A stretch of DNA of 64,000 bases from a virus, in the IMG/VR virus record IMGVR_UViG_3300029985_000036, positions 22,570 to 86,569 of that record. One strand, given 5' to 3'. The notes under the pieces are model-generated. The model searched no databases, had not been told where the DNA came from, and saw nothing but the letters and a program-made list of their open reading frames with translations. The translations under genes were made by a program, and so were the position numbers. Positions 38,479-52,964 of this stretch are shown here, in pieces (within the stretch, counting starts at the first letter, position 1; every line of letters starts with the position of its first letter).

Positions 38479-39953
38479 ACGCTCCATTTAATGTAAAGCT
38501 TTTGGATGTTAATGCCTACATTCGATCTTGGTTTGTACATCCTGTTGTCGATCTTTCTTTTTATGCCCCCTCCTCAGGGAATGCCTTCTCTCAAACAGGA
38601 TTATTCTCAGAAACCATCTTTGGCACTCTGGGTTCAACAGAACGCATGGTAACCTTTGGTTATATTGCACTGAATACATCCGTTCTTCAGCCACTGATCT
38701 ACAAGAATCTCATTAAACTTGCAGCGCTTTATGAAGAGATTATAACGGGTAATGCATATGCCCGATTCAATGATGAGACACATGATTTTGTGCGATGTCC
38801 AGATCCTGAAAAGTTTAATGATGCAGGTACTGGATATACCTTCTTTATGAATCGGTTTAATGACATTCAATTTGCACGAAATGATTCAAGAATCAGATCT
38901 GATCGAATTGATATCATTGAGAAATTCCGAGACATTCTATTTTGTGATAAATTCTTGGTACTCCCTGCAGGTCTTCGTGATCTTGCAGAAGATCAAGGTG
39001 CTGTTACAACAGATGATATCAACAAACTTTATCAAACATTGTTGTCCTATAGTTTTGCTCTTCCTCCTCATTCCAATAGTACAATCTATGATGGAGTACG
39101 AACTTCTATTCAAAAGAAAGTCGTAGAAATATATGATTATATTGAAAATATTTTAACAGGTAAAAAGGGCTTTATTCAGGGGGTTTGGGGACACCGACAT
39201 GTAGCTCTTGGTACCCGGAATGTGATCACTGCAGCTTCATATGCGACCATGACGCCCAATGACCCACAGACCCTTCAACCAGATGAAACCAAGCTCGGAT
39301 TGTTTCAGACAGCAAAGGCTTTACAACCCATTGTTGTTCATCATATCAGAACCAGTTTCTTAGCACCAGTATTTGGAGAAGGCTCCAATCTGGTTCCTCT
39401 TACAGATCCAAAAACATATGAACTTGCCTATCGATCTCTCAGTAATAAAGAACTATCAAGATTTGATAATCCAGAGGCCATTGAAGATTGGATCTCTCGA
39501 TTTCAAAATGTTGATATCAGAAATCAACCCGTCACCATTTATGATGTCGAAGGTAAACCTTTTTATCTTTTAATGGTTTATGATGAGGGTGACGAGATCG
39601 CTCTCTTTCGAAGTCTGAATGAATTTCAGAATGTATTTCTTCGTGAAATTGATCATTCTAAAATTCGTCCCTTAACTTGGGCTGAGTTGATCTACATGGC
39701 TGCTTATAATGCATCTAATGGAAAACATGTATTCATCACACGGTATCCCGTTATTCAAGATGAATCTTGTTATCCGACGAAGATTCATCTGAGTTCTACT
39801 CAACCGGCTCGTGTTGTCAGGTTGATGAACACAGTTATTGATCAGGTTGTTTATACCTATCCTGAATATCCAATTCTGGGAAGACCCTTCCTCGATAGTA
39901 TCCAATTGGCGACATCTCGGCTAAGTGGTCTGGATGCAGACTACGATGGAGAT
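38469..39953 (+). CDS. rpoC: Virion RNAP beta'-like catalytic subunit (phiKZ gp180-like), exon 1
   Basis: GLFSETIFG, GYIAL, VLPAGLRD, GKKGFIQG, TRYP and catalytic DADYDGD at exon end. Confidence 0.85.
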
Positions 39954-41780
39954 TCAACTACTTATTGTTTTCTGACAGAAAACCCATAGCAATTCCTACA
40001 TAGTCACTTGCTTATGGACTTTTTAATTCTGACACTATATTATAGAATTTAAAAGAGTAACTATAATGTCAGAAGAAGAGTTTGTAAAAATTCCTCATTT
40101 TTCTAGATACTCCATTTCAAAAAATGGAACTGTCATAGAAGATGTAAAACACCAAATTGTTGTACCGACATACAACAGATATGGACTTCCAATCGTTGCC
40201 CTAAAAAATGAACGCAATAATTTGTGCAATATGTCTATTGCCAAACTTGTATTACTTACTTACAACCCACTTGTAAATAATAATTATCCTTATGTAACTA
40301 TTTCATATGTAGATAAAAATATAAAAAATATTGTCTTAGACAATCTTGAATGGAATTTTGTCATATATAAACCTCAATTTATTCCAGGTATTAATATACG
40401 AAATGATGAATTTGTAACTGTTTATGGAACAACAGATTACATGATTAATGCATTTGGTATTCTACTTAATAAAAAAGGTAAACAACTAACGGGACACACT
40501 GATAGCAGTGGGTATATTAAAACAGAAATTGATGGTGCCGGAACTACAAGTATCCATCGATTAGTTGCGCTTACATTTTTAGAACATCCGATTGATACAA
40601 CTGATCTGATTATAAATCACAAAGATGGAAACACCAGTAATAACTATTATAAAAATCTTGAATGGTGTAGTTATACCAATAACATTGATCATGCGTATGA
40701 TAACAAAATGAGAAGTCAAAATATTCCGATTTTAGCTATGGATATTGAAACTCGTGAGATTGTGAGTCATTATAGTTTACGTGATTTTTGTTATAATGTT
40801 GAGATTCCCCACATTGCGATTTGGTGGAGGTTGCGAAATAATAGAAATATAACTCCGTATCATGGATTTTATATCAAATATACTACAGATTTAAGGCCGT
40901 GGCCTAAAAAAGATGGTGTTGTCAATGTGTATGAAAAGAAAAAAATATTAATTAAAAATATGTCAAGTGGAGATGTAACTATTTTCACAAGCTATAATGA
41001 AATAACACGACAATATAAATTTCAAAAGAATTCTATTTTATATCAACTGAATAAACCAGAGCCGGAACCATATCACGGACTTCTTATTAAATTTGAAAAT
41101 GATAAACCTTGGCCACTATACAGCGAACAAGATCTTCATAAATATTCACTTAAAAAAATGCCACAGAGTAAGCCCATTTCAGTCTATAATACACAAACTC
41201 AAGAAACAAAAACCTATGAGGGAATTCGAGAGTTTTGTCGAGACATTAACTATAAAGCTGAGATGTTTATACGAGAAAAAGTCAAATCAAACAAACCCTT
41301 TAAACACTATGAAATAAATTATCTGTAACAATAGCGATTATGTCGGTAATCCTTATTGTAAATTGTTAATATGTTCCTGTCAGAAACAATAGTATACAGT
41401 CCATCTTGATGGTAACATCAAGAATGAATTCCCTTTAATTGTCTGGAATCTCCTGTTAAACTACATCGCTACAACGTGATCCCAAAGGATGTACGTGAAT
41501 GCTTGAAAAGATGTAGGTAGGGACAACCAGCAGCGAAGTTCTTCCGAAGCGTCGTGATGACGGATTGGGTGGAAACCGTTCAACGATCAGAGCCTTTCCA
41601 GCTTGTAGAGCCCCAGTGGGGCAGAAACGGGGGACATCCTATTCTCTGTCAATGAGAGGACAAAAGGTAGGATGAAGATATGATCTGCCCCGTGCGGTAA
41701 CGTACGGCAGGTGTCTGTGCACACCGGGTTGATAGAGAAGTATCTCTTTCGAGAGATACCACGGATCAACTGGACAAGGG
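39954..41780 (+). mobile_element. Group I intron in RNAP beta' active-site region, carrying HNH endonuclease
   Basis: Exon ends in U (GAT), intron ends in G; core elements AATTGTCTGGAA (P), AACCAGCAG (Q), GTTCAACGATCAG (R), AAGATATGATCTG (S) at about 41435-41690; splicing restores DYDGD-TVSAN. Confidence 0.85.
40066..41328 (+). CDS. Intron-encoded HNH homing endonuclease
   Basis: SIHRLVALTF...INHKDGNTSNNYYKNLEWCSYTNNIDHA, degenerate N-terminal duplicate, NUMOD-like C-terminal repeats, AT-rich. Confidence 0.9.
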   Translation: MSEEEFVKIPHFSRYSISKNGTVIEDVKHQIVVPTYNRYGLPIVALKNERNNLCNMSIAKLVLLTYNPLVNNNYPYVTISYVDKNIKNIVLDNLEWNFVIYKPQFIPGINIRNDEFVTVYGTTDYMINAFGILLNKKGKQLTGHTDSSGYIKTEIDGAGTTSIHRLVALTFLEHPIDTTDLIINHKDGNTSNNYYKNLEWCSYTNNIDHAYDNKMRSQNIPILAMDIETREIVSHYSLRDFCYNVEIPHIAIWWRLRNNRNITPYHGFYIKYTTDLRPWPKKDGVVNVYEKKKILIKNMSSGDVTIFTSYNEITRQYKFQKNSILYQLNKPEPEPYHGLLIKFENDKPWPLYSEQDLHKYSLKKMPQSKPISVYNTQTQETKTYEGIREFCRDINYKAEMFIREKVKSNKPFKHYEINYL

Positions 41781-41939
41781 ACAGTTTCAGCTAATGCTAT
41801 GCTATCGGATGAAGCTAATGCTGAGGTGCATGAATTTCTTGGTAGTATACAATCAGTTGTTAATGCACAGAAAGAAATACTGATAGGAGGTAAAGATCAA
41901 CTTATCAGATACAGCCTCTATGCATTAAGTCAAGAATAA
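41781..41939 (+). CDS. rpoC: Virion RNAP beta'-like subunit, exon 2
   Basis: TVSANAMLSDEANAEVHEFL...ALSQE*, 52 codons, continues DYDGD after splicing. Confidence 0.75.
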   Translation, partial: TVSANAMLSDEANAEVHEFLGSIQSVVNAQKEILIGGKDQLIRYSLYALSQE

Positions 41940-41955
41940 AAAATAAATGAACCTT

Positions 41956-41988
41956 TATCCAGTGTTGTGCATTGCACAACACTGGATA
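41956..41988. terminator. Bidirectional hairpin terminator
   Basis: TATCCAGTGTTGTGCA-T-TGCACAACACTGGATA. Confidence 0.7.
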
Positions 41989-41997
41989 TATTCTTCA

Positions 41998-42267
41998 TTA
42001 CTCAAAAGTCAATCGACATTGGGGCTGGAGGTTGTGTACTGGAAGTTGATAACTACTCGGTGTAGTTTGAGATTTGAATATTCCAACATCAACATTCAAC
42101 GCACGGGCCAATAATTGCAAAGATGCTTCTGAAAAGTCGAGGGTTCCTGACTCATATTGTGAAATTTGTTTTGGAGATATATCCATGACATATCCCAGAA
42201 CATTTCTCGTATAACCTCTCTTTTGTCGAGCTTCTTTAATACGAAAGCCGATTTGACACTTATCCAT
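41998..42267 (-). CDS. XRE-family HTH protein
   Basis: IGFRIKEARQKRGYT..LG....ISPKQISQYESG...LARALNV. Confidence 0.85.
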   Translation of the reverse strand: MDKCQIGFRIKEARQKRGYTRNVLGYVMDISPKQISQYESGTLDFSEASLQLLARALNVDVGIFKSQTTPSSYQLPVHNLQPQCRLTFE

Positions 42268-42290
42268 TTTAAACTCCGTACGATGCGAGA

Positions 42291-42884
42291 TTACGATTGA
42301 GTCGCAATCAGCTTATCAAGATTGACAAACCGACTAGCCATAGCTGCATACTCCTGATTTCGTACAGTACTGCTATTTTCCAGAGAGGAAGTGCGCAAAT
42401 CAACTAGCTCTTCAGGTGAAAACACATGTCCAACCTCAAGTATAGTTTGATTAAGCTCGTTTATCCGATTTTGATACTTCCATTCAATCATTTTAATCAG
42501 GGCAGTTTTAAGAGCTTGTGGATTCTTGCTGATTGAAACAGCATAAGTGTCTGCTTCAATTTCAAGTGTTTCATTATTCAATATACCAGCGACTTGCATC
42601 GTTTCAAAATGCTTCAAAACACTATGTCCGATTTCATGAAGCACGACATTGTGTTGTTCAGCTTCTGTCAACACTTCACACAGAGACGACACGATAAAGA
42701 CATATTGACTCTTTTTGGTGACACGCTTCTGAAAGCAAACTTCCGGTAAGTTCTTTTTCCATTCAGAAAACATGGAAGAAGACCCAGAAAATCCCATAAG
42801 ACAAGCACCACCCATCATATTCATACAAGTGAACAGTGCCGGAGAGGTGTTGATTTTGTCGACAACGATGACAGGGATAAACAT
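42291..42884 (-). CDS. Zincin/M48-like metallopeptidase-domain protein
   Basis: VVLHEIGH...EIEADTYAV...ALIKM; start refined using GGAG RBS. Confidence 0.7.
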   Translation of the reverse strand: MFIPVIVVDKINTSPALFTCMNMMGGACLMGFSGSSSMFSEWKKNLPEVCFQKRVTKKSQYVFIVSSLCEVLTEAEQHNVVLHEIGHSVLKHFETMQVAGILNNETLEIEADTYAVSISKNPQALKTALIKMIEWKYQNRINELNQTILEVGHVFSPEELVDLRTSSLENSSTVRNQEYAAMASRFVNLDKLIATQS

Positions 42885-42992: not shown

Positions 42993-43026
42993 TGATCTCT
43001 GGGATCCATATGGATCCCAGAGATCA
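42993..43026 (-). terminator. Perfect 34-bp palindrome terminator
   Basis: TGATCTCTGGGATCCAT|ATGGATCCCAGAGATCA with minus-strand U tract. Confidence 0.7.
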
Positions 43027-43046
43027 TCTTCTCATCTATTCAACGT

Positions 43047-43250
43047 TTAACTAAACGTAGCAGTCTCCTCAAGCCAATAATCATAGTTGACCGATCCCAT
43101 AGCCTGCTTAGAAAGATACGATTGATCATGATACGGTTTGAAGTTTATTTTGGCATTCTCGAGGATCCGCATCATCGACTGTAATCCTTTGGGTCCATCT
43201 ATAACCAAAGTGTGACATCTGTGAATATCGAAATACACGATAAAGTACAT
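43047..43250 (-). CDS. Small hypothetical protein
   Basis: 67 aa, AAGGAG RBS. Confidence 0.65.
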   Translation of the reverse strand: MYFIVYFDIHRCHTLVIDGPKGLQSMMRILENAKINFKPYHDQSYLSKQAMGSVNYDYWLEETATFS

Positions 43251-43295
43251 GGGATTACTCCTTGTTGGTTGAATTATATTCTTCGATTTGTCTGC

Positions 43296-43718
43296 CTATT
43301 CAATTTGACTTGGAACCTCATCGTTCAGTTCACGGATCCATTCAAACTTGCGGATTTTGGTAGCGATGTACGATGGCCAGGTGCCGATGTACCAGGCAGT
43401 ATTCATGACAGAATACATCAGCTGGTGCAGCACTGTTCCAGTCGATAGTGCAACCAGTCGATTGATCTCACGCTCGAGATTTGCAACTGTCCGATCGTCC
43501 CGATATTGCCAATGGTTGAGAGAAAAGTCCACCACGGCGATATCACGAGCTGCCCTGTACGCAAACAACAGAGGGCGACGCTGTTCTTGAAATATGAGTG
43601 AATATACGAAGAACGCCCGATCCCGTTCATCACTGTATTCTTGGGTGTAGCCAACAACATTACTGCGAAGCAATGCTTCAGCCATGTCGAGTTCATCATC
43701 AGTCAGAAACATGTTCAT
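43296..43718 (-). CDS. Hypothetical protein
   Basis: 140 aa, AAGGA RBS. Confidence 0.65.
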   Translation of the reverse strand: MNMFLTDDELDMAEALLRSNVVGYTQEYSDERDRAFFVYSLIFQEQRRPLLFAYRAARDIAVVDFSLNHWQYRDDRTVANLEREINRLVALSTGTVLHQLMYSVMNTAWYIGTWPSYIATKIRKFEWIRELNDEVPSQIE

Positions 43719-43835
43719 GATTGTTTTCCTTGATAACAGTATTTCTGACCATGATGGACAGAATGGGTTGATGTTATAGCATAGAAATTTTAGACAGGAT
43801 GTAGCGTAGTTTCTGGTGCAGGGTAGGGCGGTGGG

Positions 43836-44003
43836 TTAGGCGTAGAACGTGACCATGTTTTTGAAACTTTTGGTGAAACTGCCGTGGTTGGGTGCAAATG
43901 CATTGGTCCGCCCCTGAAAGATGTAGTGCAGTACCGCATGGATTTGTTTCCGAAGAAACCCATACAAAATACCAACTAGAAACCACGTAATAAGAGAGTC
44001 CAT
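43836..44003 (-). CDS. Small membrane protein (not in ORF track)
   Basis: AAGGAG RBS, MDSLITWFLVGILYGFLRK..., 55 aa. Confidence 0.55.
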   Translation of the reverse strand: MDSLITWFLVGILYGFLRKQIHAVLHYIFQGRTNAFAPNHGSFTKSFKNMVTFYA

Positions 44004-44047
44004 AACACAGCTCCTTAATACGATAAAAGATTGAATTATGTTGGTAT

Positions 44048-44082
44048 CTTCACTAAAATAATATATATCTGATTATCGATGA
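44048..44082 (-). promoter_or_regulatory. Phage early promoter
   Basis: Minus strand ...TCAGATATATATTATTTTAGTGAAG. Confidence 0.7.
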
Positions 44083-44108
44083 TATCATACATTCTACTAA
44101 AAAATAAA

Positions 44109-44152
44109 GAGACTATGATCAACTCAGGTATACCTGAGTTGATCATAGTCTC
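44109..44152 (-). terminator. Perfect 44-bp palindrome terminator
   Basis: GAGACTATGATCAACTCAGGTA|TACCTGAGTTGATCATAGTCTC. Confidence 0.7.
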
Positions 44153-44159
44153 GGTTTAC

Positions 44160-44540
44160 TCAATCCTTACGAACAACACCGCGGTTGTTTAGAAACGCAA
44201 TCAAATCCATCGCAACATATTTGAATGTCGGATCCGTCTGAAAGAAGATGGGATCGAACTCTACCACGGTATTCTCGACGAGACCCTTGTACACTTCCGC
44301 GGGGGTCTCTTCATCATAATACGCAACATCGTATCGACCAGTAAGTGGCACCAGACTAAAGCATCCCGCAGTACCATCCCGACGTCCGACGAGGACACAC
44401 TCTCTTTTCGGAATGGTTTTCGCACGCCAAGTCTCATTGAATTCTTGCATTGCATCATTCCGACCCGTGGGTCCGAACAGATTTGAAATGCAGAATGTCG
44501 GCGAAACAAACGAATTGACATTAAACATGGCACAACTCAC
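44160..44540 (-). CDS. Hypothetical protein
   Basis: ORF between promoter and terminator; start uncertain. Confidence 0.6.
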   Translation of the reverse strand: MSCAMFNVNSFVSPTFCISNLFGPTGRNDAMQEFNETWRAKTIPKRECVLVGRRDGTAGCFSLVPLTGRYDVAYYDEETPAEVYKGLVENTVVEFDPIFFQTDPTFKYVAMDLIAFLNNRGVVRKD

Positions 44541-44576
44541 TTACGTGTGAATAGATTTAGATACTTTGCTTTGTAT

Positions 44577-44613
44577 CTTCATTGTAGTGATATATATCTG
44601 AAATAGAATGAAA
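44577..44613 (-). promoter_or_regulatory. Phage early promoter
   Basis: Minus strand TTTCATTCTATTTCAGATATATATCACTACAATGAAG. Confidence 0.75.
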
Positions 44614-44652
44614 CGCTGTTTAATATTCAAATAAAAAAATAAAGAAACTTCG

Positions 44653-44685
44653 ATCCAGAGTCTTCCTTTGGGGAAGACTCTGGAT
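44653..44685 (-). terminator. Terminator of the ncRNA operon
   Basis: ATCCAGAGTCTTCC...GGAAGACTCTGGAT followed on minus strand by TTTCTTTATTTTTT. Confidence 0.75.
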
Positions 44686-45293
44686 GTACTATAGTTCCGA
44701 CGCTGTGCTCATGACCGTCCTGCTGACTTACCGTAATCGATACCAGAACGGATCCTAAGATCTCGTACTATTGGTGTATGATTATCGACGTCCTGGACGT
44801 GTGTCACCTTTTGGTATTGTCGGATAGGTGTGGGTGGTGTTGAGACCTCGTGAGGATCCCATCTCTGCTAGCTATTTGTGAAGCACTGGCATCCCATATT
44901 GCTTCTACAGACTCCAATTTATGGCTTCTGTACAGCCAGAGGCTCCTGTAGTCTGCAATTGGGCATTCACAAAACTCCTTTAGACGCTAGTGCGAGCTCC
45001 CCTCGCACGATTTTCGGCCATGTCATTACACTGCTTCCTCTGGTTATTTCTAATACAATGGGACGACAATAGTGGCGTGACTAATACCACTTTATCGACG
45101 GTATCAGACCACATTAAAGGTCCGATAAGTCTCAACAGCTTATGCGCCTACGTGTGTTCGTGCACGGGTGGTTCATCCGCTGTGTAACAAGCATCTCTCA
45201 ATCATGCATTCATGTTCACAACTGGGTGTGAATTATACATGTACACGAAGATCTGAATACTTGGGGTTGAGTTGAGACCAATGTGGTTCACCC
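44686..45293 (-). ncRNA. Large structured ncRNA (~600 nt) downstream of hammerhead 1
   Basis: No credible ORF; nested stems 44838-44846/45129-45137, 44875-44882/44966-44973, 44905-44910/44946-44951, 44990-44996/45002-45008. Confidence 0.55.
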
Positions 45294-45343
45294 GACATAC
45301 AAGCTTGTATGTTTCGCTCTTACCAAGGAGCTCATCAGGGGTG
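45289..45343 (-). ncRNA. Hammerhead ribozyme 1 (type I)
   Basis: CACCC CUGAUGA GCUC-cuugguaa-GAGC GAAA CAUAC-aagcuu-GUAUG UC/GGGUG: complete core, three stems, GUC cleavage between 45294 and 45293. Confidence 0.92.
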
Positions 45344-45633
45344 GAAAATCTATGGATGCAGGTGTACGAACAATGCCCGCAAGGCCTGCATCCATAGTTG
45401 CGCGGGTCCACAACTAGCTGTGGCAAAGGTGGCAGCGCCGGTGCCCCACAACCCCACGATCAACAAAGTTAGTTAACTTTGTTGCAGATAGCTATCGTAA
45501 CCCATCTCATGTATTGTGAGATGGGTTACGATAAGTCGCACCTTTCGATCAGTACAAACTAGCAATGTTTGGTTCTGCAGAACCAAACACAGACGCTGGA
45601 CCGATGGGGAGAATACAAGCGACCAAATTGTAG
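45344..45633 (-). ncRNA. Structured RNA between the two hammerheads
   Basis: Stems 45350-45362/45385-45397, 45461-45484, 45493-45509/45517-45533, 45566-45589, 45425-45431/45539-45545; no credible ORF. Confidence 0.6.
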
Positions 45634-45686
45634 ACATCCGACACACGTAGAGTGTGTTTCGACCTATAAGGTCTCATCAGGGATGT
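45634..45686 (-). ncRNA. Hammerhead ribozyme 2 (type I)
   Basis: ACAUCC CUGAUGA GACCU-uau-AGGUC GAAA CACAC-ucuac-GUGUG UC/GGAUGU; cleavage between 45640 and 45639. Confidence 0.92.
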
Positions 45687-45694
45687 TGTAGCAA

Positions 45695-45967
45695 AGTTGA
45701 CTTAGAGAATCAAACGGAAATATTTGTAGAGACTAGACTACCATATTCTCCAATTTGTTGTGACCCTAGTAAATGAATAGTGCAACCTATCAATAGATAA
45801 AACAAAGGGGCACCAGTGTTCTACTATGTACACGATTCAAACCAGGGACAAATCAGAGACGATCATCTACTCCACCCGAAGAGTCCATCCAGACAATACC
45901 GATGGGGGTCTTTTCCGTGTCACGTGTTCTCGACAGGACTTGCGTCCCTTGATTCTCTAAGTCAACT
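45695..45967 (-). ncRNA. ~270-nt RNA domain closed by perfect 19-bp stem
   Basis: AGTTGACTTAGAGAATCAA (45695-45713) pairs with TTGATTCTCTAAGTCAACT (45949-45967); internal GGAC-GCAA-GUCC GNRA hairpin. Confidence 0.6.
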
Positions 45968-45978
45968 CTAAAGAAAGC

Positions 45979-46068
45979 AGATCCTTTCTCAACTTTCGGA
46001 TCTATTATCAACCAGCATGCGGTACAATAACAATTAGAGTTTCATTATTGTGCTGAGACATATTGACA
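45979..46068 (-). ncRNA. Unknown pseudoknotted RNA motif, copy C
   Basis: AUGUCUCAGCACAAU..AUUGUACCGCAUGCUGGUUGAU..GAUCCGAAAGUUGAGAAAGGAUC. Confidence 0.7.
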
Positions 46069-46133
46069 GGGTCACTTACCTAATACCAAAGCTCCAACAC
46101 ATCAATAGGTGATAATATTTTTGTTATAGAAGT

Positions 46134-46263
46134 GGCCCTTTCTCAACCTTCGGGTCCTCATCAACCAGCATGCGGTATAACTTACTCAGGGTTACAGTCT
46201 ATCCCAACAGCCAAGAAGGAACAACTGTAATTGATTATGAGGGTTATGCTGAGACATATCATG
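46134..46263 (-). ncRNA. Unknown pseudoknotted RNA motif, copy B (long variable stem)
   Basis: AUGUCUCAGCAUAAC..GUUAUACCGCAUGCUGGUUGAU..GACCCGAAGGUUGAGAAAGGGCC. Confidence 0.7.
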
Positions 46264-46342
46264 CGCGTACAGACTAATTCTGAACGCTCAATGACAGGTT
46301 GCTGTCTAACTAAACTCTTTGTAATTGTTCCTCTAAAGGAAC

Positions 46343-46426
46343 GATCCTTTCTCAACTTTCGGATCTTCGTTAATCAGCATGCGCTACATTACTGCGGGGC
46401 AGAGATTGTGCTGAGACATGTCAACA
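46343..46426 (-). ncRNA. Unknown pseudoknotted RNA motif, copy A
   Basis: AUGUCUCAGCACAAU..AAUGUAGCGCAUGCUGAUUAAC..GAUCCGAAAGUUGAGAAAGGAUC. Confidence 0.7.
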
Positions 46427-46534
46427 GGGGAGAATCCATTGACAGATTAACGATACACTCATTTTCCACATAGAATAATTCTAGTGGGTGATTTGTTACT
46501 CCAACATCTATAAATTACAGATGTCTTTGTATAT

Positions 46535-46570
46535 CTCATAATTGTAATATATATCTGAATATGGATGAAC
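46535..46570 (-). promoter_or_regulatory. Phage early promoter driving the ncRNA operon
   Basis: Minus strand GTTCATCCATATTCAGATATATATTACAATTATGAG. Confidence 0.75.
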
Positions 46571-46599
46571 TTTATCCATATAATTATTAAAAGGTTCTT

Positions 46600-47080
46600 T
46601 TATTTTGCAGACCAAAGGATTTCATTAAATTCGTCAGTGGACACATTATGACATTGAACCAACGTGGCTTTTATTTCTGCCAAAGTTACTTTTCCAACAC
46701 CACCATTATCTCGAATACCATCTCGTATGAGATCTCCAACGGTATATCCATCAAAACGTGATGCTGGAATTACCAGTTTAAGTGACCACCGAGTACGATG
46801 TGTAAGTGATCCTGTGCCAATAAAATCCTTTAATAACATACTGCGGATATCGGCTGGAATTATATGTGTATTTTCCAGATACTTTTGGACACGTCGATAT
46901 CTGAGAACAATCGATTTTATCGTAGTCCCTGCTCGATTAAAGTATCGACCTGCTTCTATAGGTATGTCCCGCATCGACATAATCGGCTACTTCTTTTTCT
47001 GTAAATCCTCGAGCTTTGATACTTTTAATGGATTGTCTATTCTGATGGTGTTGAACATCGAAATCGGTTACATCAACCAT
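46600..47080 (-). pseudogene. Frameshifted HTH plus RNAP alpha-CTD-like gene
   Basis: RBS-led ORF 47080-46937 (..EVADYVDAGHTY) and ORF 46980-46600 (EAGRYFNRAGTTIKSIV..LTHRTRWSLK..TVGDL..GVGKVTLAEIKATL) join into one HTH near 46957. Confidence 0.55.
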
Positions 47081-47117
47081 GATGCATTTTCCTTTTGTTG
47101 AATGGCATAGAGTTTAA

Positions 47118-47145
47118 GAGAAGGAACTCTACAGAGTTCCTTCTC
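47118..47145. terminator. Hairpin
   Basis: GAGAAGGAACTCT-AC-AGAGTTCCTTCTC. Confidence 0.55.
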
Positions 47146-47162
47146 CTAAGATTATTTTGTAG

Positions 47163-47423
47163 TTAATCGACAAGCGATGGAGTAATTAATGTTTCAATAT
47201 AAGACAGGGCTGCACGCGTATCAATGAACCAATGCATTATATCAACATCAGGATCAACTTGAAAACGAGTCACCCATTCTTCATAGGGTGCCTCGAGAGA
47301 TGAGAATTTAGGATGTCGCTCATTACGAGATTCAGTTGGGTACTCAATTCCCAGCCTGTATATCCAAAAACACAAGGAACGGTATTGTTCGATGAAATTG
47401 CAAGGAGAATTGACGACACTCAA
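47163..47423 (-). CDS. Hypothetical protein
   Basis: 86 aa ORF, start uncertain, weak promoter motif at about 47480. Confidence 0.45.
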   Translation of the reverse strand: MSVVNSPCNFIEQYRSLCFWIYRLGIEYPTESRNERHPKFSSLEAPYEEWVTRFQVDPDVDIMHWFIDTRAALSYIETLITPSLVD

Positions 47424-47559
47424 GTTGAAACTGGGTCATAAGAAAACATCATCTGGAGTTATTGGTATCTCATATCATTTAAATAATATATCTATTTATT
47501 GAGATTTCAAAATCTGCGGGACGTAAGATGTTATCTCATCCCATCTTCCATTTATGATT

Positions 47560-47850
47560 TTTCGGATTCTATAGGATGGTATCTAGTAAACTAATTAATT
47601 ACTTACTTCTTATTTTTCTAATTTCATTTTTTTATTTATAAAAAAATTCCGTCTTTACTTATATAAGTTATTTTTTCTTCTTAAGTAAAAAATAACTTAT
47701 AGTAGATATTTTATACTTTAACACTTACGTCAGATATGAGTTTACCAGATCCCTCTTCTTCTTCTAGAAGGGGTCGGGTGGAGCCCGACCCCTTCTAGAA
47801 GAAGTATATAATCTATCGTCTATATAAGGGCATTGTAAAATAAAAAATAA
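47560..47850. other. AT-rich non-coding region with two inverted repeats (candidate origin/regulatory locus)
   Basis: IR 47662-47676/47687-47701 and 21-bp-arm hairpin 47758-47804. Confidence 0.4.
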
Positions 47851-47863
47851 CACAGGAAGATAG

Positions 47864-47897
47864 AGATAGGCACTGGGATTAATCCCAGTGCCTATCT
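47864..47897 (-). terminator. Perfect 34-bp palindrome terminator
   Basis: AGATAGGCACTGGGATT|AATCCCAGTGCCTATCT. Confidence 0.7.
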
Positions 47898-47909
47898 ATA
47901 GGTTACTCA

Positions 47910-48200
47910 TCAAGTTCTAATGGTTGGAATGATCTCAAAGGTACCAGGTCGTTGTTCAGCAATAGTCAACTCTGATTGCATGATGGACACAGTCCATACT
48001 GCGGTTGCATATTCACAAAAATGGGTGGTAAACCTATTCACTTGGGTTTGAAAAGAGTCAGTAACTATCTTTTCAGCCAGAGAGTAAAGCATTTCAGTAG
48101 AATGACTACCAATCATTCCCTCTGTAATCTCAACTGCACAAGTGGCAGATACAACTGGGTCATGATTACCCAGCTTACGAGTTAAAACACCAACGTACAT
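47910..48200 (-). CDS. Hypothetical protein
   Basis: 96 aa, AAGGA RBS. Confidence 0.65.
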   Translation of the reverse strand: MYVGVLTRKLGNHDPVVSATCAVEITEGMIGSHSTEMLYSLAEKIVTDSFQTQVNRFTTHFCEYATAVWTVSIMQSELTIAEQRPGTFEIIPTIRT

Positions 48201-52693: not shown

Positions 52694-52731
52694 TCGAACA
52701 GGGGGTTGGGCTTTCGCCCACCCCCTGTCGA
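52694..52731 (-). terminator. GC-rich terminator after tRNA-like RNA
   Basis: ACAGGGGGUGGGC-GAAA-GCCCAACCCCCUGU followed by U-rich run on minus strand. Confidence 0.7.
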
Positions 52732-52799
52732 GTTGTTGGAATCGGACCAACGACGATATGACGCAATGCATATGTTTTACCAACTAAACTAAACTCTGA
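52728..52799 (-). ncRNA. Degenerate tRNA-like RNA
   Basis: GAGUU/AACUC acceptor, UA-GUUU-AGUUGGUA-AAAC D arm, AUAUG-8nt-CAUAU anticodon arm, GUUGG-UCCGAUU-CCAAC T arm. Confidence 0.65.
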
Positions 52800-52835
52800 T
52801 TTCAAATAAGTAATATATATCTGAATCTGGATGAA
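52800..52835 (-). promoter_or_regulatory. Phage early promoter
   Basis: Minus strand TTTCATCCAGATTCAGATATATATTACTTATTTGAAA; shares a ~34-bp exact direct repeat with the promoter at 52550. Confidence 0.75.
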
Positions 52836-52964
52836 ACGCAGTGTTAGAATATGCCATCGAATCATGCTATGTAATCAAATTATTCTTTTTGAGAGAATGA
52901 AACTTATCGTAACAATAAGCTTTTAAATAATTGTTAGTATGATATCAGTGATGGAGAATGGCTT

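Follow-up and report, generated by a model that had tools for sequence, protein, structure and literature searches.

Hammerhead ribozymes self-cleave after NUH. The tRNA/stable RNA operon of phage T4, with its species 1 and 2 RNAs, is a polycistronic non-coding transcript that is processed by host RNases and carries mostly tRNAs. In polycistronic transcripts of phages and prophages described by Perreault et al. (2011, PMC3088659), multiple hammerheads bracket protein genes, e.g., ardA. Here a minus-strand locus of about 1.9 kb is described in which two hammerheads separate folded RNA domains. It lies in a window of 64,000 nucleotides (nt), positions 22,570-86,569 of the 86,569-nt IMG/VR virus record IMGVR_UViG_3300029985_000036, and coordinates below are those of the window. 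The likeness to the T4 operon is that of a phage non-coding transcript which would be cut into several stable RNAs, although T4 has no built-in ribozymes. With the phage hammerheads of Perreault et al. (PMC3088659) the locus shares the type I consensus core, the presence of several ribozymes per transcript and the phage setting, whereas the ribozymes described there have protein genes between them and those of the window have three highly folded RNA segments poor in open reading frames (ORFs). We read the locus, with a probability of roughly 0.55, as a non-coding RNA transcription unit that stands alone and processes itself, in a phiKZ-like jumbo phage. The elements that delimit and divide the unit are as follows.

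46530-46570, minus strand: promoter motif of the phiKZ type with core TATATTAC, showing a consensus of about 40 nt common to 12 other copies in the record
45634-45686, minus strand: hammerhead A, type I, with stems I/II/III of 6/5/6 base pairs (bp) and a predicted cut after C45640
45289-45343, minus strand: hammerhead B, type I, with stems I/II/III of 5/4/7 bp and a predicted cut after C45294
44629-44685, minus strand: terminal hairpin and U-rich tract, i.e., a 14-bp hairpin at 44653-44685, a 5-nt spacer and the U-rich tract at 44629-44647

Neither strand of 44541-46599 has an overlapping ORF of more than 80 amino acids (aa). This interval of 2,059 nt is the longest gap free of ORFs of at least 90 aa in the 86,569-nt record, where such ORFs cover 85% of the sequence; the runner-up measures 962 nt. 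Six of the longest small frames in the gap (57-80 aa) were compared with Pfam and gave zero matches at E<=0.1. Thus the initial annotation, which had seen about 1.9 kb without a credible ORF in a dense genome, is borne out in this respect. The G+C content of the stretch is mostly 0.42-0.49 vs roughly 0.30-0.40 directly upstream. A repeat finder recovers three two-part direct-repeat copies, a 19-bp stem (arms 235 nt apart), a 17-bp hairpin and the 14-bp terminal hairpin, all stems being perfect. It also recovers a 34-nt repeat at both borders of the unit, and this border repeat is the promoter-like motif. Every element listed in the initial annotation was found in its place. The second largest ORF-free gap (41329-42290, 962 nt) follows an HNH endonuclease gene at 40066-41328 and has a G+C content of up to 0.51; at E<=1, a comparison of 39800-42400 with Rfam gives no family, not even a group I intron.

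A descriptor of the type I hammerhead, consisting of the core, three stems and H17, was run on both strands of the 86.5-kb record. Exactly two matches are found, hammerheads A and B, with C17 at 45640 and 45294 as the initial annotation had it; the mean over 200 Markov-1 random sequences was 0.01 matches, and none had two. Both ribozymes read CUGAUGA ... GAAA ... UC, in agreement with the core of RF00163 (clan CL00010), given as C3 U4 G5 A6 N7 G8 A9, G12 A13 A14, A15.1-U16.1 and H17 in PMC3088659, and both have three helices with an open stem I. When folded in an 81-nt local context, the canonical three-stem structure is the minimum-energy fold as well as the centroid for A and for B. A 4-bp pseudoknot is possible in hammerhead B between loop II (UGGU) and ACCA at 45286-45283, 2 nt past stem I, as read from the sequence. 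A comparison with Rfam, proposed as a check in the initial annotation, detects both ribozymes in E-value mode and neither at gathering thresholds. Hammerhead A (45634-45686) has an end-to-end match to Hammerhead_1 (29 bits, E=2e-4, gathering cut-off 34), and hammerhead B (45289-45343) matches HH9 (19.4 bits, E=0.19, gathering cut-off 52); the scores are lowered because long stem III inserts cost score. By their anatomy both are type I hammerheads of predicted activity, although their scores lie below the Rfam cut-off.

The promoter motif was assessed by its recurrence. When up to 2 mismatches are allowed, TCAGATATATATYAC is found 13 times in the window, in each case on the minus strand, vs 0.43 expected, and none of 100 shuffles reaches 13. 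An exact copy at 46544-46558 heads the unit, and the next copy lies at 44573-44613, past the U-rich tract. The minus-strand phage promoter motif that the initial annotation placed at 46535-46570 is upheld. The extended consensus of about 40 nt (TTCAT..., TCAGATATATAYYAC, ...TGAAGATAC) has 13 copies in the 86.5 kb, on the minus strand throughout; it stands ahead of ribosome-binding sites, a tRNA-like gene and the RNA unit. In a table of PMC7058600 the phiKZ promoter core is TATATTAC, and promoters of OBP and N1M2 are listed with it; the motif of the record has the same core as phiKZ and resembles the OBP and N1M2 promoters (PMC7058600). It is thus like a phiKZ-type promoter of the virion RNA polymerase in having the core TATATTAC within a recurrent AT-rich motif ahead of transcription units. 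Early timing is suggested solely by this likeness to the phiKZ core. An exact copy of the motif is also found directly ahead of a tRNA-like gene at 52730-52836 on the minus strand (Rfam tRNA 35 bits, cut-off 29; ARAGORN finds none), thus the motif would drive RNA genes as well.

At the other end of the unit, the hairpin 44653-44685 (14 bp, 100% complementary) and the U-rich tract, together 44685-44629, are the probable terminus. The initial annotation had named a hairpin plus U-tract terminator at 44653-44685; the perfect hairpin stands, and the U-rich tract begins 5 nt after it.

As a self-processing unit the locus would work in the following way. A phage polymerase that reads TATATTAC-type promoters would start near 46535 and produce a minus-strand RNA of about 1.9 kb, probably ending at the hairpin and U-tract 44685-44629. 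The two type I hammerheads, whose anatomy is intact, would cut the nascent RNA after C45640 and C45294 into three RNAs: a 5′ RNA of about 0.9 kb with three pseudoknot modules and a 273-nt stem-closed domain, a middle RNA of 346 nt with many perfect hairpins, and a 3′ RNA of about 640 nt. The latter would then lose 22 nt, as far as the base of its first closing helix, to give a species of 575-580 nt whose end at 45271 is taken from contigs only.

Similar hammerheads were sought in other viral sequences for comparison of what lies between them. Hammerheads sharing the same stem II were found in >120 viral stretches, and 80 loci were examined with the type I descriptor. These contain 107 type I hammerheads, up to 5 in one locus, which form 48 adjacent same-strand pairs. 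The longest open frame occupies a median 0.94 of the segment between paired hammerheads and at least 0.6 of it in 31 of the 48 segments, vs 0.22, 0.55 and 0.30 in the three segments of the window; thus the cargo differs from the usual hammerhead case. The ORF-filled segments of the other loci agree with the prophage operons of Perreault et al. (2011, PMC3088659). The ribozymes are ordinary and the cargo is not. Phage hammerheads usually lie between small protein genes, and those described here lie between folded non-coding domains, behind the phage's own promoter. Other viral contigs, namely L080 (7501-10028), L103 (370-1370), L091, L137 and L144, have 3-5 type I hammerheads in a row, spaced by about 250-900 nt and with one small ORF per segment. 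These arrays consist of two alternating hammerhead sequence types that resemble hammerheads A and B of the window.

Hammerheads between small genes being a common arrangement, the unit could be supposed to encode several very small proteins (<80 aa) with ribozymes between them, an arrangement known from other phages, and minus-strand frames of 54-63 aa are indeed open inside the RNA segments. These frames cross long perfect hairpins and have no Pfam match, and the open-frame share of 0.22-0.55 is to be set against the median of 0.94. We regard a protein-coding role as extremely unlikely.

The folded domains of the unit, in the order of the transcript, are listed here.

46343-46430, minus strand: module copy 1, with outer helix P1 (46425-46421/46373-46369), box UCUCAGC (46416-46410), a variable hairpin, the conserved CGCAUGCUG, and a hairpin (46365-46343) whose loop has the anti-box GUUGAGA (46356-46350)
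46134-46270, minus strand: module copy 2, with a longer insert, box 46254-46248 and anti-box 46147-46141
45980-46069, minus strand: module copy 3, with P1 (46067-46062/46012-46007), box 46058-46052, hairpin 46051-46024, and hairpin 46002-45980 with anti-box 45993-45987
45695-45967, minus strand: 273-nt domain with a perfect 19-bp closing stem, seen by repeat finder, fold z-score and RNA contigs
45344-45633, minus strand: inter-hammerhead domain with perfect hairpins, among them one of 17 bp at 45493-45533; the product would be 45639-45294, 346 nt
45272-45293, minus strand: leader of 22 nt from the predicted cut of hammerhead B to the RNA end seen in contigs, with the stem I 3′ strand and the box GGUCUCAA(C)
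44692-45271, minus strand: 3′ RNA of about 575-580 nt, seen in RNA-library contigs, with anti-box GUUGAGAC (45136-45129) and a second box (44845-44839)

The strands of the 19-bp stem (45695-45713/45949-45967) are 100% complementary, and four perfect hairpins lie between the two hammerheads. Relative to shuffled sequences, the 273-nt domain (z = -7.1), the 346-nt inter-hammerhead piece (z = -6.5) and the 3′ domain (z = -4.1) all have much lower folding energies. The initial annotation had described a 270-nt domain closed by a 19-bp stem, a stem-rich domain of about 290 nt, a structured domain of about 600 nt and three copies of a structured motif; these values, together with the repeat search, confirm all four. 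In an Rfam search over 44300-46900 at E<=10 the cargo domains match no family, among those covered being ROOL, GOLLD, group I/II introns, RNase P and other self-cleaving classes. We infer that the cargo consists of structured RNAs of uncatalogued families. The motif G(G/A)UGAACCAC is present twice: at 45283-45293 it forms the 3′ strand of stem I and the tail of hammerhead B, and 115 nt further, at 45168-45178, it lies in the 3′ RNA.

Two folds considered for parts of the cargo were dropped. A hepatitis delta virus (HDV)-like fold starting at 45271, drawn by eye, has a best P1 partner that pairs at 5 of 7 positions and has no Rfam match. A retron msr-msd RNA was considered for the 273-nt domain; a reverse transcriptase match (RVT_1) is absent from the 86.5-kb record, which is 38% complete.

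The module has exactly three copies in the 86.5-kb record by nhmmer (repeat families D1 and D2), each of about 90-140 nt. From 5′ to 3′ it consists of the outer helix P1, the box UCUCAGC, a variable hairpin, the invariant CGCAUGCUG, the return strand of P1, and a 5-bp hairpin with a 13-nt loop. This loop carries GUUGAGA, which pairs with the box at 7 of 7 positions in each of the three copies. Box (UCUCA[AG]C) and anti-box (GUUGAGA) are found 5 and 4 times, respectively, in the 1.9-kb transcript, vs 0.20 and 0.13 in 2,000 shuffles, none of which matched the observed counts; the extra set is located in the 3′ domain. The module is therefore predicted to be capable of forming a pseudoknot, with the box paired to the loop of the 3′ hairpin. 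MAFFT/RNAalifold applied to the three copies misaligned copy 2, thus module pairs were counted by coordinates.

RNA libraries were used to look for the transcript. Eight peat/permafrost RNA runs contain part of the stretch; four runs from four studies were mapped on 43000-48000, and runs X21-X24, with a small word share, were left out. The data are Logan contigs, which give presence and not level, strand or cleavage. In the 3′ domain there is a 575-nt contig identical to 44697-45271, a variant contig of run X18 covering 44692-45180 with 22 substitutions and 27 gap letters, and contigs at 44834-45271 and 45015-45278. Two contigs (45769-45944 and 45808-45955) fall on the 273-nt domain, a variant contig of depth 133 covers 45909-46110, and the module array is represented by 46159-46310 and 46232-46474. 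Mapped contigs cover none of 43000-44691, of 45279-45768 (both hammerheads and the piece between them) or, with the exception of a 34-nt poly-T match, of 46475-48000, which reflects the mapping rule and is not evidence. The 3′ domain and portions of the 5′ half are thus represented in contigs of four studies. The view of the initial annotation that this is a separate non-coding unit behind a recurrent promoter motif of the phage is supported.

Natural variants bear on the proposed helices. Of the 14 substitutions listed for the depth-133 variant, which is about 90% identical, 6 affect helix positions of the model (P1 has three, the box one and the 19-bp stem two), and 6 of 6 keep pairing; in the copy-3 module 4 of 4 changed helix positions stay paired. 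Four of the other 8 substitutions are in a variable hairpin loop. The pairing in this variant is modest support and not covariation. Module copy 2 is replaced by 30 other letters in the variant contig, thus copy number varies. When the 22 substitutions of the X18 variant are placed on the minimum-energy fold of the 580-nt RNA, 6 are kept, 7 broken and 9 unpaired. The changes cluster in 45010-45067, together with indels; the alignment in that interval is non-structural, and no conclusion is drawn from these counts. An 18-nt deletion in the X18 variant, 44923-44940, coincides with a putative small terminal hairpin read from the sequence.

The source phage was placed by its RNA polymerase. CheckV gives a completeness of 38% for the record, which suggests a full genome of about 230 kb. 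A 1,704-aa RNA polymerase beta-like protein encoded in the record corresponds to phrog_3148 (898 bits) and is 28-34% identical to proteins of Erwinia, Ralstonia, Pseudomonas and other jumbo phages; thus the record is that of a distant, uncultured phiKZ-like jumbo phage. At least half of the sampled words of the stretch are present in 11 peat metagenome runs, 3 of which may be the source. RNA polymerase beta relatives at 58-75% identity exist (P0003-P0012), several of them on contigs longer than 190 kb. A single-protein scan and a genome-contig scan with polymerase alignment A2 found none, and a viral-contig scan with A2 gave only three loci, at 47-50% identity (IMG/VR; one of them 91% complete). 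These three, G001-G003, have no notable Rfam match, and their best hammerhead score, 16.3 bits, is unconvincing; the promoter motif recurs many times in them and is the only part of the locus that matches. The genes flanking the RNA unit are orphans. For the protein of 126 aa encoded upstream, viral contigs and phage records yielded no relative, and its only match among 5.8 billion proteins is to itself.

Homologues of the unit were sought at the nt level. A blastn search with the 2-kb stretch against 50,697 phage records gave zero matches, and a 21-mer of the 3′ RNA gave 0 matches in viral contigs. A 17-mer of the module loop was found in 51 viral-contig stretches, all unrelated coding DNA. 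A longer module pattern gave 5 stretches in metagenome contigs, all chance matches in coding or unrelated DNA, and the module pattern gave 0 matches in genome contigs. With both module halves, nhmmer found only the window's own copies in 1.2 Mb of loci.

The absence of the locus from the three relatives and the orphan state of the flanking genes would suit a decayed remnant of a hammerhead-punctuated small-gene operon, whose RNA has no function of its own; hammerhead pairs in the 80 viral loci do usually bracket a single small ORF (median share 0.94; 31 of 48 at 0.6 or more). Decay does not agree with the strong folding z-scores, with three conserved modules in which box and anti-box are matched, or with a G+C content of 0.42-0.49 vs roughly 0.30-0.40 upstream. 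Nor does it agree with RNA contigs that include a variant about 90% identical whose changes spare the helices. A remnant is considered very unlikely.

The ends of the RNA contigs were compared with the predicted cuts. The initial annotation expected ends at 45640/45639 and 45294/45293, and no contig of the four runs ends at either. The 45294/45293 end was not seen; instead, two contigs from two studies end at 45271, one of them continuing directly into the read-1 Illumina adapter, and a third reaches 45278. Since the adapter is joined at 45271, many inserts ended there. Position 45271 may thus be a discrete molecule end that, in a stranded library, would fit the 5′ end of a minus-strand RNA, although this is a weak hint. 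It lies directly after a box, at the first pair of a helix enclosing the initial 147 nt of the 3′ RNA. Compared with the predicted ribozyme product, the 3′ RNA in the contigs therefore lacks 22 nt, and its end needs a further step or another nuclease. Ribozyme cutting itself is likely, as judged from the intact cores, but it would not make the end of the 3′ species found in the contigs.

Several points weigh against the reading of the locus as a self-processing unit. A single sharp RNA end is seen, and it falls 22 nt downstream of where hammerhead B would cut; the libraries, whose contigs attest presence, may contain DNA. At gathering thresholds Rfam reports nothing in the stretch, both hammerheads scoring below the cut-off, and in hammerhead A no tertiary contact between stems I and II is visible. 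A simple terminator scan does not call the hairpin 44653-44685, and the U-rich tract begins 5 nt past the stem, which makes the terminator non-canonical. In module copy 2, P1 and the P4 (3′) hairpin are weaker than in copies 1 and 3. A further helix, CAGCA/UGCUG, is broken twice in the depth-133 variant and was rejected, and all 6 helix changes of that variant are one-sided transitions, each with about a 1 in 2 chance of staying paired. No homologous locus is found in the viral, metagenome or genome collections searched, and G001-G003 (polymerase 47-50%) are without the locus and have protein genes upstream of the polymerase gene, at the place where the unit could be expected. The binding role suggested below for the module array is pure conjecture.

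The first of these points, together with the position of 45271 at the first pair of a closing helix, bears on the possibility that the unit is non-coding but that nucleases (RNase E, III or P, or exonucleases) determine where its RNAs end, the hammerheads being weak, slow or vestigial. Their low Rfam scores and the lack of a visible tertiary contact in hammerhead A would be in keeping with such a role, and RNase III could plausibly act on the perfect helices of 19 and 17 bp. However both cores are complete, each with its three stems, and chance would very rarely place two matches on one strand at a distance of 346 nt; similar hammerheads are also common and arrayed in other viral contigs. Processing by nucleases in place of ribozymes is the strongest of the alternatives, but is regarded as unlikely.

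The discrete RNA end is also relevant to a role at the DNA level, possibly as a replication origin, a packaging site or a protein-binding array, in which the inverted repeats act in DNA and the RNA is incidental. Several perfect inverted repeats of 14-19 bp in an ORF-free stretch could be so explained. However the hammerhead cores are on one strand only, the promoter and hairpin have the same orientation, the RNA end is found in an RNA library, and with its raised G+C content the stretch has no AT-rich unwinding region. The prospect of a DNA element is slim.

Two hammerheads that would leave 5′-OH and cyclic-phosphate ends on one 346-nt RNA bring to mind retrozymes and viroid-like circular RNAs, of which the examples in PMC5680766 and PMC7761336 likewise are RNAs of a few hundred nt bounded by two hammerheads. 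The inter-hammerhead piece might be what the locus is for, and be excised and circularised in the same way: between the stem I helices of A and B there is a difference of one compensated pair, and a joined chimeric stem I is possible, as read from the sequence, with one C-A mismatch. However the two hammerheads differ from each other, unlike retrozyme repeats, and the locus is a single copy in a DNA phage. A circular (back) junction of the two hammerhead ends is reported in none of the four RNA runs, a weak negative given that these are contigs only, and RtcB is not encoded in the 86.5-kb fragment (38% complete). Circularisation of this piece appears far-fetched.

The 3′ RNA can be compared with the large ornate RNAs ROOL and GOLLD (PMC5737381; cryo-electron microscopy preprint 10.1101/2024.12.08.627333), the former averaging 581 nt according to Weinberg et al. 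(2017, PMC5737381). It resembles what these sources present in its size of about 580 nt, intricate fold, phage origin and presence in RNA libraries, but it would be made behind a hammerhead, and it matches neither Rfam model at E<=10. Thus size and phage setting agree with ROOL/GOLLD and the covariance models do not, and by analogy the 575-nt RNA may be a large ornate RNA in the ROOL size class. A different parallel is provided by the HDV-like theta ribozymes, which adjoin tRNAs of gut phages in the cases reported in PMC10879173. These are similarly small self-cleaving ribozymes beside phage non-coding RNA genes and apparently define RNA ends, but they are of another class with tRNA cargo, and in the window the observed end is off the ribozyme site.

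Tandem RNA decoys are the nearest parallel to the module array. RNA anti-CRISPRs of phages are RNA decoys in tandem. The pseudo-ToxI repeats, too, are tandem phage RNA decoys (PMC3475682), and with both of these groups the array shares tandem structured RNA units in a phage, suggestive of multivalent protein binding. It differs from them in its units of 90-140 nt with variable inserts, and no partner toxin or CRISPR repeat is known. The array exposes three near-identical sequences (CGCAUGCUG and the GAAAGUUGAGAAA loop). That it serves as a multivalent binder, i.e., a sponge or decoy, for a host or phage protein is possible, although on balance doubtful. The initial annotation had considered anti-defence decoys, scaffolds and host-takeover RNAs, all of which are candidate roles.

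The end at 45271 is exactly the 3′ edge of the box that pairs with a module-type anti-box, and possibly there is a fourth, divergent module copy at the head of the 3′ RNA. A joint reading should also be considered, in which the pseudoknot module and the ornate RNA of about 575 nt are at least two RNA classes new to the catalogues, the box/anti-box fold may itself define RNA ends, and the hammerheads merely free the pieces. The fold may then be a new self-cleaving structure or an exonuclease-blocking knot like flaviviral xrRNAs. We consider the combination quite unlikely.

PhiKZ-like phages are reported to shield their DNA from host defences while RNA stays exposed, which makes RNA-level tools for take-over or counter-defence of special interest in this group. 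Three or four uncatalogued structured RNAs are indicated in one such phage, and with the proposed unit it can be asked, on a definite example, whether phages use ribozymes as processing signals built into RNA 'operons'. In the literature on phage hammerheads and ribozymes that was searched, a hammerhead-separated non-coding RNA unit in a jumbo phage is not described; supplementary motif lists (PMC5737381, PMC3088659; PMC10690425, 10,006 candidates) lie outside the search and could list these RNAs. The words jumbo, hammerhead and ribozyme are absent from the main text of PMC10690425.

The repeated pseudoknot module may belong to a wider family. A conserved 48-nt half-module is shared by other RNA contigs (depth 43-48), which then diverge and whose printed ends can form a hairpin just before CGCAUGCUG. 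Thus the module exists in other sequence contexts in peat. In run X20 the conserved half-module (45979-46027) is present in three further RNA contigs, with a mean word depth of 43-133 vs 11 for the 575-nt RNA, and one 177-nt contig carries the half-module twice, 147 nt apart.

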